From Tagaea sp. (GTDB lineage Bacteria > Pseudomonadota > Alphaproteobacteria > CACIAM-22H2), in NCBI GenBank assembly GCA_965279525.1, contig CBDIIB010000005.1:576001-640000 (forward strand): a DNA stretch of 64,000 nt, in the 5' to 3' direction. Both the position numbers and the translations under genes were made by a program. Shown here in pieces: positions 40,654-43,427 of this stretch. The first letter of the stretch is position 1. The number at the start of each line of letters is the position of its first letter. The notes below the pieces were generated by a model, which was not told the DNA's origin, did not search any database, and saw nothing but the letters and a program-made list of their open reading frames with translations.

Positions 40654-41721
40654 ATGCAGAGCCGCACCCTCGCCATCCTCGCCTTGTCGGCCGCCATCGT
40701 CGGCGGGGCCGCCGTGATCGCCACCGGCGGGCGCAACGACGCGTCCGACGCCGATCCCGCGGGCAAGCTCGTGTTCCCCAACCTGCCCGCGCGCATCGAC
40801 GGCGTGGCGCGCATCGAGATCGAGCGCGGCGGCGAGAAGTTCGAGCTGGTGCGCGACGCCGCCGGCCACTGGACGATGCCGGCCAAAGCGGGCTATCCGG
40901 CCGATTTCCAGCTTGTCCGCCGGCTGGCGCTCGACATGGCGAACATGCGCATCCTCGAGGCGCGCACCGCGAGCAAGGCGCTGCATGCCGACATCGATCT
41001 CGACGGTTCGGGCAAGGACCAGAAGGCCGTGCGCGTGGCGCTGTCCGGCGCGCAGACCGAGCAGTTCGCCAGCGTGCTCGTGGGGCGCACGCGCTTCGGC
41101 CGGCAGGGCAATGCCGGCGACGGCACGTTCGTGCGCCGCGAGGGCGAGGACCAGGTTTGGTTCGTCCAGGGACGTGTGGGCGTGGAACGCGAACAGACCA
41201 AATGGCTTGAAAAGCGCATCGTCGACGTGGTGCGCGAGCGCGTGGCCAAGGCCGTCGTCGTGACGGCCGACGGGGCACGCCTCGAAATATCGCGCGCCAA
41301 GCACGACCAGCAGGATTTCGATCTGGCGGCGGTCCCCGCCGACAAGAAGATCAAGACGGCGTTCGACGTGAACCTCATTGCATCCGCCATCGAAGCCCTC
41401 GACCTCGAGGACGTGCGCAAGGCCGACGGCCTCGCCTTCCTCGGCCAGCGCGACTTCGCCGAATTCACGACGTTCGACGGCCTTGCCGTGCGCGTCGAAT
41501 TCGCCAAGGACGGCGCCGACATCTGGGCGCGCTTCACCGCACGCCACGCGGCTCCGGCCACGCCGGTCGAAGGCGACAAGCTGAAGAAGCCCGACGAGGT
41601 TGCCGCCGAAGCCGCACAGATCGCCAAGCGCACCCACGGCTGGGCCTACCGCGTGCCGGCCTACAAGGCCGAGCAGATGAGCCGGAAGATCGCCGACCTC
41701 GTCGAGGACAAGGGCGCCTGA
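40654..41721 (+). CDS. DUF4340 domain protein
   Basis: N-terminal TM, GYPAD motif; fourth gene of a Gld-like operon. Confidence 0.85.
   Translation: MQSRTLAILALSAAIVGGAAVIATGGRNDASDADPAGKLVFPNLPARIDGVARIEIERGGEKFELVRDAAGHWTMPAKAGYPADFQLVRRLALDMANMRILEARTASKALHADIDLDGSGKDQKAVRVALSGAQTEQFASVLVGRTRFGRQGNAGDGTFVRREGEDQVWFVQGRVGVEREQTKWLEKRIVDVVRERVAKAVVVTADGARLEISRAKHDQQDFDLAAVPADKKIKTAFDVNLIASAIEALDLEDVRKADGLAFLGQRDFAEFTTFDGLAVRVEFAKDGADIWARFTARHAAPATPVEGDKLKKPDEVAAEAAQIAKRTHGWAYRVPAYKAEQMSRKIADLVEDKGA
41707..41721 (+). repeat. Left direct repeat (att-like) GACAAGGGCGCCTGA
   Basis: 14/15 identical to 42860-42874; it is the last four codons plus stop of the DUF4340 gene. Confidence 0.8.
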
Positions 41722-41751
41722 ACGAGGTCAGGCTCCAGCTCGAATCCCTTA

Positions 41752-41764
41752 CAATACATTGATT
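41752..41764 (-). promoter_or_regulatory. IHF-like site
   Basis: AATCAATGTATTG matches WATCAANNNNTTR exactly. Confidence 0.5.
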
Positions 41765-41939
41765 TAGTTTATATTTTTACGCTCGCCGGCATATCAAGTG
41801 AGCCGCGCGCCACCCCCATTCGTGGTATTCCAATTTTGAGATAGCCCCTACCCATTGTGGTGCGCTAGCGTGTTAGGTATATGGCCGAATTGCAATTTTT
41901 GATTCGCAATCGCTGTGCAGGTCAGATTAGAATGTTGGA

Positions 41940-42446
41940 ATGCACTGCGAGACCCTCGCCAAAAACGCGCCTTCGGGCGCGATCCCGGTTGCTATCGAAG
42001 AGCTCTTCGAGAAGCTGCGCCTTGCGCGTGTCAATCGGGAAAAGGCCGAAGCGACGGTCGAAGAAGAACAGGCCAATGCCATCCAGCTCGAGCGTCTGAT
42101 CGCTGGACTGGTCGCTCTTCTCCCGGCGGCCGATCAATCCAAATACCGCGCTAGGCTGAGTCCGGCGGCACCGTCGAAGGGCGGCATTGTCTTCGACAAC
42201 GTCGTCAGCCTTTTCCGCGATGCTCCGAATCAACAGTGGACGCCGACGAGCGTTCAGGCGGCGCTTGAAAAAAAGGGCGTCAGTGCCGACACAAAAGCAA
42301 TCGCAAATATCCTCGCCTATTTGGCGCGGTCCGGAAAACTGGTGCGAGCTGCTCGCGGACATTACGTCTCGCAAGGCTGGATGATCGTCACGAGCGACGA
42401 AATCGAAGCCGATGAGATGAGCCGCGAAAAGTTCGCCGAACTGTAA
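41940..42446 (+). CDS. Hypothetical protein: N-terminal coiled coil plus C-terminal winged-helix-like domain
   Basis: Amphipathic helix LRLARVNREKAEATVEEEQANAIQLERLI; WTPTSVQAAL...IANILAYLARSGKLVRAARGHY wHTH-like pattern. Confidence 0.75.
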   Translation: MHCETLAKNAPSGAIPVAIEELFEKLRLARVNREKAEATVEEEQANAIQLERLIAGLVALLPAADQSKYRARLSPAAPSKGGIVFDNVVSLFRDAPNQQWTPTSVQAALEKKGVSADTKAIANILAYLARSGKLVRAARGHYVSQGWMIVTSDEIEADEMSREKFAEL

Positions 42447-42451
42447 GGAGG

Positions 42452-42483
42452 AAAAGAAAACGCCGCCGGTTGGATCGGCGGCG
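42452..42483 (-). terminator. Intrinsic terminator-like hairpin (minus strand)
   Basis: CGCCGCCGGT-TGG-ATCGGCGGCG stem, followed on the minus strand by TTTTCTTTT. Confidence 0.6.
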
Positions 42484-42491
42484 TCAGGAAA

Positions 42492-42577
42492 ACCAGGGTG
42501 GCGAAAATGGTAGACGCAACAGAGTTGGATTCTGTGGGTCCGTGGTGGCCGTGTGGGTTCGAGTCCCGCCCCTGGTA
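42492..42577 (+). tRNA. Irregular type II tRNA: Leu-type body with UGG (Pro) anticodon
   Basis: ACCAGGG/CCCTGGT acceptor, A73; D arm GCG-AAAATGGTAGA-CGC; anticodon arm ACAGA-GTTGGAT-TCTGT; variable stem; T arm GTGGG-TTCGAGT-CCCGC; CCA not encoded. Confidence 0.85.
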
Positions 42578-42602
42578 CATATGTTGAGCGTTCGGTTCTT
42601 GT

Positions 42603-42705
42603 GCCCCTGTGGTGCAATTGGAAAGACACGGCGGTGGCTACACCGCCGTCCCTAGAAGCTGGCCGGCTTCGAAGGACTGTGCAGGTTCGAATCCTGTCAG
42701 GGGCA
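42603..42705 (+). tRNA. Irregular tRNA-like RNA: Leu-type body, no canonical anticodon loop, very long variable arm
   Basis: GCCCCTG/CAGGGGC acceptor, A73; D arm GTG-CAATTGGAAAGA-CAC; GCGGTG-GCTA-CACCGC arm; variable arm GTCC..GAAGCT-GGCC-GGCTTC..GGAC; T arm GCAGG-TTCGAAT-CCTGT. Confidence 0.8.
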
Positions 42706-42761
42706 CCCTTAGCAGTCAACACTAAACTCTTGGATTCATTGTCGAATAGAAATTCGGACTC

Positions 42762-42774
42762 TTTCAATCACTTA
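42762..42774 (+). promoter_or_regulatory. IHF-like site
   Basis: TTTCAATCACTTA, one mismatch to WATCAANNNNTTR. Confidence 0.4.
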
Positions 42775-42859
42775 GCTAGCGCCTAGGCCTGCGTCTGCTG
42801 CGCGTTCTCCAACGTACTGCTTCCAAAGGCCTTCGACTCGACAAGAATCCCGTAGCCAA

Positions 42860-42874
42860 GACAAGGGCGCGTGA
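42860..42874 (+). repeat. Right direct repeat (att-like) GACAAGGGCGCGTGA
   Basis: 14/15 identical to 41707-41721; also reads D-K-G-A-stop. Confidence 0.8.
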
Positions 42875-42878
42875 GCCT

Positions 42879-43322
42879 CTAGCCGACGACGTTCCCGCGC
42901 ACCCATTTGCGCACGATCGTGTCGTCGGACGGCCAGTGCATCGGCTGCACGCCGGTCAGCTGCGCCAGCACGCATTTCCACGTGCCGCCCTCGCGCACAT
43001 AGGTGTCGGTGTAGCGGGTCATGCCGGTCACTTCGGTGCCCTCGCGCACGCGCACCCATTTGGTGGCCGAACTCACCAGTGCCATGTCGCCGAAGATCTC
43101 GATCCGCTCGTCGCGATAGTCCCAGTAGACGATCACGGCCGGATCGAAGCCGGTCGCCCATTCGACCAGATAGGCCGCGCGGTCGGTGCGCGAGCCGTCG
43201 GAATTGATGCAGGTGAAACGCGGATGGATGATCGCGTCGTGCGACGGCACGTCGTTGGTGACGAAGTTCTCGATGAACTTCGCGTTCAGCGCGCGCAGGG
43301 CGGCAAGGGTGTCGGCGGTCAT
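42879..43322 (-). CDS. Nuclear transport factor 2 (DUF4440) family protein
   Basis: IEIFGDMALV, TRYTDTYVREGGTWKCVLAQ. Confidence 0.85.
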   Translation of the reverse strand: MTADTLAALRALNAKFIENFVTNDVPSHDAIIHPRFTCINSDGSRTDRAAYLVEWATGFDPAVIVYWDYRDERIEIFGDMALVSSATKWVRVREGTEVTGMTRYTDTYVREGGTWKCVLAQLTGVQPMHWPSDDTIVRKWVRGNVVG

Positions 43323-43333
43323 GTCGCAGATTA

Positions 43334-43427
43334 CCCTCACCCCGGCCCTCTCCCGCAAGCGGGAGAGGGGGATGACAAAACGCGGTGGGTCCCCTCTCCC
43401 GCTAGCGGGAGAGGGTTAGGGTGAGGG
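43334..43427. repeat. REP-like inverted doublet (CCCTCACCC...CCCTCTCCCGCAAGCGGGAGAGGG family)
   Basis: Two palindromic units in inverted orientation separated by ~20 bp. Confidence 0.85.

Follow-up and report, generated by a model that had tools for sequence, protein, structure and literature searches.

Within the 64,000-nt stretch of Tagaea sp. DNA that we analysed (the window, whose numbering is used throughout), a 1,153-bp insertion of low GC content carries an open reading frame, ORF168, and two tRNA-shaped genes, X1 and X2. A 15-nt direct repeat lies at its borders (repeat family D5; 14 of 15 positions identical, spacing 1153), and its junctions were compared with genus relatives. The left copy, GACAAGGGCGCCTGA (41707..41721, + strand), forms the final 15 nt of the host DUF4340 gene (40654-41721), and the right copy, GACAAGGGCGCGTGA (42860..42874, + strand), lies 5 nt before the stop codon of a convergent DUF4440 gene on the - strand (42879-43358). 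GC content is 0.586-0.590 over 41500-42999 versus 0.63-0.72 in the surroundings. The insertion is missing, and DUF4340 and DUF4440 are adjacent, in each of the six genus relatives for which a position was obtained for both flanking genes; the two genes are 4 nt apart in G019 and G017. Pieces of the insert had no match among 19 genus loci, and X2 was found in one genome of the genus only, that of the host. A blastn search of the insert returned no match among plasmids and one among phages, in which the X1 part aligned to a phage tRNA-Leu.

The inserted cassette itself (41722..42859, + strand) comprises a promoter-like region, ORF168, a hairpin, X1, X2 and a conserved downstream block. It is about 1 kb long and has no recombinase of its own, and no gene for a toxin, a nuclease or a transferase that might act as a partner was found in the 1.15-kb insert. 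A consensus scan placed a sigma-70-like promoter match, CTTACA-16-TATATT, at 41748..41775 (+ strand; 9 of 12 positions, a pattern match only), and the region holds 2 such consensus sites against 0.7 expected. ORF168 (41940..42446, + strand) is followed by a strong hairpin (42459..42485, + strand; -20.0 kcal/mol, z -4.9) that ends 6 nt 5' of X1 and is kept along with X1 in soil and aquatic contigs. This hairpin scored as a terminator only for the - strand, and the terminator scan detected no + strand terminator between ORF168 and X1; since the hairpin has no + strand T-run, transcription of ORF168 probably reads through. On the 3' side of X2, a conserved block (42736..42775, + strand) consisting of TCATTG, about 20 nt and TTTCAATCACTTAG is common to the relatives L270, L273 and L264, and a 13-mer of it lies 49-58 nt past the RNA in 4 of 4 loci. 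The motif TTCAATGACTTAG was considered as a terminal repeat of the cassette and rejected, as it occurs downstream of the RNA only (4 of 4 loci).

X1 (42492..42577, + strand) is a class II, Leu-like tRNA with a canonical 7-nt loop, GUUGGAU, and the proline anticodon UGG. It has A1-U72 and A73 and no genomic CCA, the following bases being CAT. It scores 47 bits with the Rfam tRNA model and is called by ARAGORN as tRNA-Pro(tgg), 87 nt. Its nearest DNA matches are tRNA-Leu genes, and its anticodon-arm 23-mer had 0 matches in genome_contigs.

Fold and leucine-type features of X2

X2 (42603..42705, + strand) is a 103-nt, Leu-type, tRNA-shaped RNA with an anticodon loop of 6 nt, separated from the discriminator of X1 (42577) by a 25-nt gap on the same strand. 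Its acceptor stem pairs GCCCCUG (42603-42609) with CAGGGGC (42698-42704) over 7 bp, with A73 at 42705, and its T arm, GCAGG-UUCGAAU-CCUGU (42681-42697), has a 5-bp stem that includes one G.U pair. With the GUUCGAAUC T loop and G18G19 in the D loop, X2 thus has the cloverleaf of the Rfam tRNA model (RF00005). The fold, the family alignment and the pair counts place the anticodon-arm hairpin, GGCGGUG-GCUA-CACCGCC, at 42630..42647 (+ strand), where a 7-bp helix (42630-42636 / 42641-42647) is capped by GCUA (42637-42640). In the register of the family described below, the same arm is a 5-bp anticodon stem, GCGGU/ACCGC, with a 6-nt loop, GGCUAC; the 7 bp and the tetraloop arise because a G-C pair at the loop end and G26-C44 lengthen the 5-bp stem. 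The extra (variable) arm (42648..42677, + strand; 30 nt) is made of two helices according to the fold and to covariation in the family (helices 4 and 5): a basal one of 4 bp, GUCC/GGAC, and an apical one of 6 bp, GAAGCU/GGCUUC, with a 3x3 internal loop, CUA/GAA, between them and a GGCC apical loop. The first-pass annotation had described intact acceptor and T stems (7 and 5 bp) with A73, an anticodon stem of 6-7 bp with a GCTA tetraloop and no U33, the two variable-region helices (GTCC/GGAC and GAAGCT/GGCTTC) and the 25-nt spacing from the upstream tRNA, and the sequence and MFE fold bear it out on each point, the family register adding the 5-bp stem and 6-nt loop.

The MFE of X2 is -50.3 kcal/mol versus a shuffle mean of -37.6 (z -3.33), and 1 of 200 shuffles was as good. 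X2 scores 33.8 bits with RF00005 (gathering score 29; E 0.0028 in the 64-kb window), the lowest Rfam tRNA score among the 47 hits in the host genome, and ARAGORN called no tRNA at its position. Canonical decoding calls for a 7-nt loop, U33 and a purine at position 37; the X2 loop has 6 nt, or 4 nt when closed, and its U33 position holds no U.

Judged by its sequence, the body of X2 is Leu-type, and the loop and the extra arm are its variable parts. It resembles bacterial tRNA-Leu in its D arm (A14 A15 U U G18 G19), the GU before the T stem that places a U with A15, A73, C2-G71 and a long extra arm. It differs from tRNA-Leu in having no leucine anticodon (NAG or YAA; the loop reads GGCUAC), a 6-nt loop without U33, one additional D-loop base (an A, relative to the host tRNA-Leu genes), no genomic CCA, and an extra arm of about twice the tRNA-Leu length with two helices. 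The identity set described for E. coli tRNA-Leu consists of A73, A15-U48, G18G19, the A20a region and the tertiary pairs between D and T loops, and the same account gives the anticodon arm and extra arm as dispensable for charging by LeuRS (PMC9976931). Every one of these E. coli elements is present in X2 at the level of primary sequence. After A73 the genome reads CCC. CCA is encoded in 41 of the 47 host Rfam tRNA hits, and because three ordinary host genes end in CCG, CCA must be completed post-transcriptionally in this organism, which has one PF01743 nucleotidyltransferase.

The family of X2-type RNAs

We defined the X2-type RNA family by a D arm of the form GGUGCAAUUGG(N2-4)GACAC, a long extra arm and a leave-one-out model score well above that of the host tRNAs. 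A scan with the D-arm pattern returned 13 relatives, with 2 loci in genome_contigs and 11 in metagenome_contigs; viral_contigs gave 0 matches to the RNA pattern. The strict pattern is scarce, occurring at 2 loci in a collection of one genome per species that spans 185,579 species. A covariance model built from 11 relatives, with X2 excluded, scored X2 at 83.9 bits (E 7e-17, genome), versus 48.6-56.9 bits for the host tRNA-Leu genes, which were the next-best matches of the model, and 49.1 bits for X1. A covariance model and a genome search had been named in the first-pass annotation among the ways to check X2, with an absence of homologues and of expression among the outcomes that would count against it; homologues were found.

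Twelve family sequences could be aligned over their full length. The anticodon loop has 6 nt in 9 of the 12, 8 nt in one, and 7 nt in two (L262 and L268), whose canonical loops carry the anticodon GAU. Fifteen of 31 pairs changed on both sides, a level that 0 of 500 shuffles reached, and 96.2% of cells are paired across the family versus 31-43% in slid controls. The anticodon stem and both extra-arm helices (helices 3-5) are retained through compensatory changes, and X2 has no broken stem. Because G.U pairs are frequent in the family, the structure can be assigned to the + strand. The earlier statement that X2 cannot decode normally is thus supported, the short loop being a family trait (9 of 12), and the cloverleaf maintained by compensatory changes sides with the earlier description of a tRNA mimic rather than a wreck.

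Sequence change is unevenly distributed over the molecule. In an 8-member subclade, identity is 89-100% in the body, 53% in the loop and 65% in the extra arm. Change concentrated in the loop and the extra arm is unlike the spread-out change of decay, and X2 shows neither the broken stems nor the changes throughout the molecule that mark a pseudogene. Fast change of these two parts would fit a role in specificity; the first-pass annotation had suggested that the extra arm may bind a protein. The whole family keeps all stems and the leucine identity set, yet has a six-base anticodon loop; a leucine identity shared by all members is not assured, as the discriminator is G in 2 of the 12 aligned members and CCA is genomically encoded in 5 of the 13 relatives. 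Genes neighbouring the relatives include a DUF5615/PIN-like gene, which adjoins L270, an IS1595 transposase and a phage morphogenesis gene.

Two further searches added no members. The exact 18-mer of the X2 anticodon hairpin occurs in at least 118 stretches of genome_contigs; none of the matches listed lies in a tRNA context, so these are taken as chance GC-rich matches. A broad Leu-like pattern gave a heterogeneous set of at least 116 matches in at least 114 stretches, and the first 100 of the 114 loci listed were scored with the model, L248-L261 being left out. Among these 100 only L232 exceeded 70 bits; the other scored loci fell at 48.7-66.2 bits, the range of ordinary tRNA-Leu, and the broad-pattern loci are kept out of the family count.

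ORF168 and the linked winged-helix proteins

The ORF168 product (P0001) belongs to an uncharacterised family with a long N-terminal helix and a C-terminal winged helix; its AF2 model has a pLDDT of 85.2 and contains no second domain. Its C-terminal tail and stop codon lie in a second, degenerate copy of the host DUF4340 3' end (42407..42456, + strand), recognised by a local alignment score of 34 versus a shuffle mean of 14.1 (sd 2.3, maximum 22) and covered by repeat families D2, D3 and D10. A single-query search of genome_contigs with P0001 returned nothing and a word-indexed protein search returned only P0001 itself. Pairwise and profile searches ruled out that it is an orphan: BLASTP matched it at 4e-9 and 3e-7 to the ORFs directly 5' of the L273 and L270 RNAs, and the profile of its family, A5, found 348 representatives at E<=1e-3. 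A5 occurs in 2 of 400 genomes of the class.

L264 is the RNA closest to X2, and the ORF 5' of it falls in a different family, A1 (98.7% probability), which comprises 79 clusters. In the models, a long helix is joined to a winged helix in A1 and A5 alike, and hhalign found no relation of A1 to P0001 or to the L273 ORF (probability 0.3% and 0.1%); as far as models and alignments can tell, the two families have the same architecture and no detectable sequence homology. A Foldseek search of the A1 model against the PDB returned generic winged-helix proteins only, with 0 matches at E<=0.001, and the A1 profile gave 0 confirmed hits in viral_contigs.

An ORF of family A1 or A5 ends 4-45 nt before the first tRNA-like gene in 8 of the 10 RNAs with enough upstream sequence to be judged, a linkage that is partly a product of how the loci were found. 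At a ninth locus, L272, the 3' end of such an ORF is retained, and L269 lacks one. In the host (G000), ORF168 counts as directly upstream, with X1 between it and X2. The one strong A5 homologue that came from the protein search (L275, in G086) has no tRNA-like gene in the next 687 nt. Among the broad-pattern matches listed, only L232 has an A1 or A5 ORF, and BLASTP at 1e-3 of the upstream ORFs of the 116 listed matches against P0001 found none related.

We also considered ORF168 as an AbiEi antitoxin. Eight of 55 members of its family match the AbiEi_4 winged helix weakly; the Pfam score of ORF168 is 17.5 bits (cut-off 25), PADLOC gave E 0.0025-0.042, the protein has a single domain, and the assignment was rejected. 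No AbiEii nucleotidyltransferase gene was found in the insert. In the Protein Atlas the nearest clusters are unnamed, and those of the AbiEi_4 and RNase R winged helices, at <0.9, serve as leads only.

Interpretation of X2 and comparison with known systems

We lean, with a little more confidence than doubt, towards X2 being a functional RNA from a small family of leucine-type (class II, 7/5), non-decoding tRNA mimics that moves horizontally, with a role as decoy or regulator favoured. The best reading of the locus is a processed non-decoding tRNA mimic on a mobile two-gene module, and it is from the features above that we infer its function, transcription, processing, charging and decoy role; none of the sequencing runs listed for the locus was an RNA run. 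X2 would be co-transcribed with the upstream ORF168 and X1, excised by the ordinary tRNA-processing enzymes and supplied with CCA by the host CCA-adding enzyme. It is probably leucylated, since the identity elements are kept and LeuRS needs neither the anticodon nor the extra arm. The anticodon loop, cut to six nt, would be shut into the extended helix and tetraloop; with no U33 and a 6-nt loop X2 has no normal anticodon, and would thus act outside decoding, as a tRNA mimic. It may serve as a decoy or regulator for a tRNA-binding enzyme in an accessory module akin to toxin-antitoxin systems or defence islands, in which the winged-helix protein would regulate by binding DNA, with specificity set by the variable loop and the extra arm.

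An alternative that we regard as unlikely, if worth taking seriously, makes X2 a cis-acting signal that processes or stabilises the 3' end of the ORF168 mRNA: a cut by RNase P would leave a hairpin-ended mRNA, and the released RNA would have no job, following the logic of MALAT1 and mascRNA. At 6 of the 8 linked loci 4-7 nt separate the ORF stop codon from the RNA that follows, a stable hairpin occupies the 45 nt 5' of the first tRNA-like gene at 7 of 10 loci (z -2.1 to -5.2), the hairpin is without a + strand terminator tail, and a freely varying loop would be expected if only RNase P had to recognise the element. However, recognition by RNase P takes no more than the acceptor/T minihelix and the elbow, yet helices 3-5 are maintained by compensation. 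In the host, moreover, it is X1 that adjoins the hairpin, X2 lying 156 nt past the stop codon, and there is no significant upstream hairpin at L270, L273 and L280 (z -0.2, 0.0 and +1.4).

It is also unlikely that X2 is a decaying relic, that is, an acquired, once-decoding and possibly mistranslating Leu-like tRNA that was disabled by a 1-nt loop deletion and persists as a passenger of the cassette. A tRNA made toxic by mistranslation would be disarmed most simply by such a deletion, the loop is a canonical one of 7 nt in two members (L262 and L268), and X2 itself has no genomic CCA, the lowest of the 47 Rfam tRNA scores and a presence in one genome of the genus. Against this, the 9 of 12 members with a 6-nt loop differ from one another by compensatory changes in the acceptor, anticodon, extra-arm and T stems, and a short loop common to so many compensated members is not expected of independent wrecks. 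The conserved body beside a loop of 53% identity, the intact stems of X2 and the family-wide pairing likewise speak against decay.

The non-decoding mimic that we favour can be drawn more boldly, as a new two-gene mobile module in which a chargeable tRNA-Leu mimic, with its hypervariable loop and extra arm as specificity determinants, is paired with a long-helix/winged-helix partner; we hold this fuller version to be distinctly unlikely. X2 could in that case be an RNA antidote, bait or sensor for nucleases or transferases that hit anticodon loops or acceptor ends, and X1, with its Leu body and Pro anticodon, could supply the toxic side of the module by mistranslating.

That X2 is an unconventional ribosomal decoder strikes us as very unlikely. 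It might read a doublet, giving a -1 frameshift, or present a 5-bp stem, GGCGG/CCGCC, with an 8-nt loop, UGGCUACA, that reads a quadruplet; the family loop length does vary (6, 7 and 8 nt), the X2 loop has GCU followed by A, and doublet decoding and expanded-loop frameshift suppressors are described as studied phenomena. But there is no U33, predicted G-C and U-A pairs leave just four loop bases open in a fold of -50 kcal/mol, and the loop sequences are too diverse for one codon; we know of no recoding target for X2. The last alternative, in which X2 is an ordinary tRNA but for an indel introduced by assembly or sequencing, is barely credible, although the first-pass annotation had cautioned that an assembly indel could shorten the loop: Logan contigs from two samples of one study, at a low depth (2-3.2) and possibly derived from the same data as the assembly, cover 42440-42760 with 0 differences and 0 gaps, a base put back into X2 would still yield neither a leucine anticodon nor U33, and 8 further family members, obtained from other sources, likewise have a 6-nt loop.

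To our knowledge, non-decoding tRNA-shaped RNAs are known only from scattered cases. The mascRNA at the MALAT1 3' end and viral 3' tRNA-like structures stand at the end of a longer transcript, are recognised by tRNA-processing enzymes and have a non-decoding anticodon arm; they are eukaryotic or viral, with no Leu-type class II body and no bacterial mobile cassette. The tRNA(Other) of Bacillus cereus is reportedly chromosomal, tRNA-shaped and charged, with a Lys/Trp-like class and identity, and is said to work outside translation; we know of no report of it as mobile or linked to a winged-helix gene. It has no sequence relation to X2. It is mentioned as a non-decoding tRNA-like regulator in PMC5389517. 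YrlA (Rfam RF02553) is described as a bacterial Y RNA with a tRNA-like domain, which imitates the elbow and acceptor of a tRNA and thereby engages proteins that bind tRNA. X2 was rejected as a YrlA RNA, with 14 bits in the Rfam model (gathering score 69, E 5.5). It lacks a Ro-binding stem, and neither rsr nor rtcB was found in the insert.

A precedent is given by the irregular tRNA polycistrons near toxin-antitoxin systems, some of whose products are described as charged and unused in translation (Mukai et al. 2017, NAR, PMC5389517). As described, these and inactive allo-tRNA-like genes share with X1 and X2 the tandem arrangement of non-canonical tRNA-shaped genes with long extra arms, a location on patchily distributed accessory DNA of soil bacteria and a suspected non-translational role (PMC5389517, PMC7609411). 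X1 and X2, on one strand and 25 nt apart, are likewise tandem irregular tRNA genes. By their descriptions, the tRNAs of Mukai et al. have 8/4 (or 9/3, Sec-like) acceptor branches, or a G-1 or extra loop, and Ser or His identity (PMC5389517), whereas X2 is 7/5 and Leu-type, has a 6-nt loop and is tied to two winged-helix ORF families. X2 thus lacks the 12-bp acceptor branch (8/4 or 9/3) of an allo-tRNA.

The family is linked to two uncharacterised protein families (348 representative clusters and 79 clusters). With its apparent movement between bacteria beside a gene for a small, putative DNA-binding protein, X2 points to an undescribed task for tRNA-shaped RNAs beyond ordinary protein synthesis. 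If it is charged and yet kept from the ribosome, it would offer a natural scaffold on which to study the requirements of LeuRS, RNase P, the CCA-adding enzyme and EF-Tu, and a candidate player in the conflicts of tRNA-targeting toxins with their targets. If LeuRS charges X1, in turn, leucine would be placed at proline codons. The literature that we searched yielded no description of Leu-bodied tRNAs with non-leucine anticodons. In our wider scan, many such tRNAs were present among the matches listed.

Structure, relatives and loop length of the X2 RNA family

X2, the 103-nt tRNA-shaped RNA at window 42603-42705 (+), is a genuine, conserved member of a family, not described before, of Leu-type tRNA mimics whose anticodon loop has six bases. 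At these coordinates, the sequence reads as the first-pass annotation described it. The Rfam tRNA model covers X2 over its full length and scores 33.8 bits, against a gathering score of 29; the alignment is poor at the anticodon arm only, and 31 nt are inserted in the variable region. ARAGORN makes no tRNA call on it. The MFE fold is a cloverleaf (-50.3 kcal/mol, z -3.33; 1 of 200 shuffles was as good). Its acceptor stem has 7 bp and its D stem, which is weak, 3 bp; the anticodon helix of 7 bp is capped by GCUA, the extra arm has helices of 4 and 6 bp, and the T arm has 5 bp.

Exact-motif searches failed to find relatives of X2. A broad pattern (Leu-type D arm, over-long middle) returned at least 114 heterogeneous stretches, and among the matches listed L232 has the rare GGUGCAAUUGG D arm of X2. 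Searching with a GGUGCAAUUGG-arm pattern yielded two loci in species-representative genomes (L232, from an alphaproteobacterial MAG, and L262, from Bradyrhizobium), 11 loci in metagenome contigs and no match in viral contigs. In all, 12 X2-type RNAs could be aligned over their full length. L264 (marine metagenome) is identical to X2 in the T arm and in the 3' strand of the acceptor, and L273 in the D arm. A model built from the 11 relatives without X2 gives X2 83.9 bits, compared with 48.6-56.9 for the host tRNA-Leu genes and 49.1 for X1, the odd tRNA upstream of X2. When we ran the family model R1 on the first 100 of the at least 114 broad-pattern loci, only L232 exceeded 70 bits; the others scored 48.7-66.2.

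The structure of the family is under selection. In the 12-sequence alignment, standard pairs occupy 96.2% of cells and 15 of 31 pairs show both-sided changes; none of 500 shuffles reached any of five measures, and sliding the 3' partners as a control dropped pairing to 31-43%. Compensatory changes are seen in the acceptor stem, the anticodon stem, both extra-arm helices and the T stem, and the many G.U pairs identify the + strand as the structured strand.

The short loop is a family trait. Counted from the conserved 5-bp anticodon stem, the loop has six bases in 9 of the 12 members: GGCUAC in X2, UGGCAG in L273, UUGCCG in L232 and L267, UGCCAG in L263 and L266, UGGCCG in L265 and L271, and CUGCCA in L270, which has a 6-bp stem. 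L264 has an 8-nt loop (UGGUAUGG), and L262 and L268 have the canonical 7-nt loop CUGAUAC with anticodon GAU. First and last loop bases are pairable in 8 of the 9 six-base members (U.G; G-C in X2), resulting in the extended helix and tetraloop of the first-pass annotation. Within the 8-member A1-linked subclade, identity is 89-100% in the acceptor, D, anticodon-stem and T regions, 53% in the loop and 65% in the extra arm; change is thus concentrated where a tRNA mimic would carry specificity, not scattered as gene decay would leave it. The caveat that an assembly indel had shortened the loop is untenable, since Logan contigs of two samples agree with the assembly over 42440-42760.

A mobile cassette with a winged-helix gene

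X2, X1 and ORF168 (protein P0001; 41940-42446 (+)) lie in a region, 41722-42859, that is an insertion. GC content dips to 0.59 over 41500-42999 versus 0.63-0.72 in the surroundings. To its left lie genes for ABC_transp_aux and DUF4340 (40654-41721 (+)), and to its right a convergent DUF4440 gene (42879-43358 (-)) and a ribonucleotide reductase gene. The DUF4340 gene was found in 20 of 21 genus genomes, and the DUF4340 and DUF4440 genes abut in all six relatives where both could be placed; in two of them, G019 and G017, the junction reads TGA-GCGC-CTA. Pieces of 41722-42878 had no match in any of 19 other genus loci, and ARAGORN found no tRNA there. Direct repeats of 15 nt flank the insert at 41707-41721 and 42860-42874, matching at 14 of 15 positions with a spacing of 1153. 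Inside the insert, at 42407-42456, is an unexpected third copy, degenerate, of roughly the final 46 nt of the DUF4340 gene (score 34 versus a shuffle maximum of 22); it supplies the C-terminal tail and last codons of ORF168. This internal copy suggests either that one site took two insertions in succession or that the end of the target was captured. Relatives of X1, ~88-90% identical and with the upstream hairpin, occur in soil and aquatic metagenome contigs, and their similarity spans 42451-42587 only. Together, the flanking repeat, the internal copy and these similarity limits suggest that a hairpin-plus-X1 unit and an ORF unit may have come together stepwise, through successive events at a single attachment site.

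P0001 appeared to be an orphan in single-query searches, and its relatives were found later via RNA-linked ORFs. It is homologous to the ORFs before L273 (BLASTP 4e-9) and L270 (3e-7), and a profile of these three proteins retrieves 348 representatives at E<=1e-3, of which 183 reach E<=1e-10 (family A5). The ORFs before L232, L262, L268, L271 and L264 form family A1 (98.7% hhalign probability for the L264 ORF), whose 79 clusters are all named hypothetical and contain no Pfam domain. We found no sequence relation between A1 and A5; their predicted models are alike, each with a single long helix at the N terminus joined by a linker to a winged helix at the C terminus. Foldseek matches are limited to generic MarR-, Fur- or Zalpha-type winged helices, and weak AbiEi-type winged-helix matches occur in 8 of 55 A5 members. 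An A1 or A5 ORF ends 4-45 nt before the first tRNA-like gene in 8 of the 10 RNAs with enough upstream sequence, a link that is partly an effect of how the loci were found; of the other two, L272 retains the 3' end of such an ORF and the divergent RNA L269 lacks one. Protein searches detected A5 in 2 of 400 other genomes of the class and A1 in 4 of 300 other genomes of one family. In one of these four, G520, an A1 ORF precedes a Leu-like tRNA of X1 type with anticodon UGG (L280); X1-type and X2-type RNAs alike are thus cargo of these ORFs. The cassette that carries the X2 family is small and mobile and includes a winged-helix protein gene. The DNA around the related RNAs is accessory and mobile: L270, for example, has a DUF5615/PIN-like gene as a neighbour, L267 an IS1595 transposase, L265 a phage morphogenesis gene and L268 a rhodanese gene.

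Genome G086, which has a strong A5 match, contains no tRNA-like gene in the 687 nt that follow. Downstream of the P0001 homologue there are a terminator-like hairpin and a 51-aa ORF, small and basic (MSSKTHKAGRDARTGKF...; L275 2115-2270 (+)). At L281 2502-2610 (-), a 109-nt tRNA-like match (26.6 bits with R1) has a 42-nt insertion in the anticodon region; some 600 nt away is an A1-like ORF that contains an internal stop.

A promoter-like site (pattern match) is located at 41748-41775. The hairpin at 42459-42485 has a T-run on the - strand only, so that ORF168, X1 and X2 are probably transcribed as one RNA. Of 10 loci tested, 7 carry a stable hairpin in the 45 nt that precede the first tRNA-like gene (z -2.1 to -5.2). 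All four loci of the X2 subgroup share a conserved block 49-58 nt after the RNA, TCATTG and later TTTCAATGACTTAG. Another pattern match, TTGAAA-18-GACAAT at 42738-42767 (-), is directed into X2; with the - strand T-run, it makes an antisense transcript across X2 and X1 conceivable.

Charging and possible role of X2

By its sequence, X2 is unable to decode normally. Leucine identity in E. coli, as outlined in PMC9976931, comprises A73, A15-U48, G18G19, A20a and D/T-loop contacts. X2 carries this full set plus C2-G71; two family members have G73, so Leu identity may not be uniform across the family. Genomic CCA is present in 41 of the 47 Rfam tRNA matches of the host genome and absent from X1 and X2 (three ordinary genes have CCG); the host has one PF01743 nucleotidyltransferase gene. 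Given known enzyme requirements, X2 would be processed, CCA-completed and leucylated. By context and analogy, we favour a role as decoy or regulator of a tRNA-binding enzyme in a toxin-antitoxin or defence-type module. The main rival is that X2 acts purely in cis, in the processing of the mRNA 3' end. The closest precedent is the irregular tRNA polycistrons reported near toxin-antitoxin systems, some of whose RNAs are charged in vitro yet inactive in translation (PMC5389517; review PMC7609411). Those RNAs differ from X2 in their acceptor branches, which are 8/4 or 9/3, and in their identities. We found no description in the literature of tRNA-like RNAs with tetraloop anticodon arms on mobile elements.

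X1 and other unusual tRNAs

Since the host genome (4.35 Mb, 5 contigs, 65-67% GC) already has an ordinary tRNA-Pro(UGG) as well as five tRNA-Leu and four tRNA-Ser genes, X1 and X2 count as extras; among its 47 Rfam tRNA matches, X1 scores third-lowest and X2 lowest. X1 (42492-42577 (+); 47 bits) ends 25 bases upstream of X2 and combines a class II Leu-like body with a normal 7-nt loop, GUUGGAU, and the Pro anticodon UGG. The D arms of X1 and X2 resemble those of host tRNA-Leu genes, and the DNA sequences closest to X1, found in relatives and in a phage at 73-78% identity, are those of tRNA-Leu genes. If LeuRS charges X1, leucine would be placed at CCN codons.

Among the matches listed, many Leu-bodied class II tRNA genes with anticodon UGG occur in diverse phyla, often with very long extra arms (L149, L150, L182, L216, L222, L225, L227, L231, L236, L248, L259, L280; also L190 and L255, with C33). 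Others, from Rhodobacteraceae/Paracoccaceae and elsewhere, have Ala, Gly, Asp or Arg anticodons (L153, L164, L181, L186, L193, L205, L237, L252). Our literature search found no description of Leu-bodied tRNA genes with non-Leu anticodons, nor of natural Leu-bodied tRNAs with Pro anticodons. Bacteroidota have a highly conserved Leu-like tRNA-shaped gene of ~105 nt, with acceptor GUAGGG.../...CCCUAC, loop CUGUCUC and a long bipartite extra arm (L148, L154, L159, L168, L169, L183, L184, L208, L218, L229, L235 and others).

Outside the window, the host genome contains a 97-nt Sec-like tRNA shape at G000:C5:749716-749812 (-) (L147 1017-1113 (-)), with an 8-bp acceptor, a 6-bp anticodon stem, a long extra arm and anticodon UAU (fold z -2.95). 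Its Rfam tRNA-Sec score is 24.2 bits, under the gathering score of 47. A weak-HTH ORF ends 27 nt upstream, and an AAA_13 (PF13166) ATPase gene (E 1.6e-40) is next downstream. The shape recalls the allo-tRNA(UAU) group of Mukai 2017.
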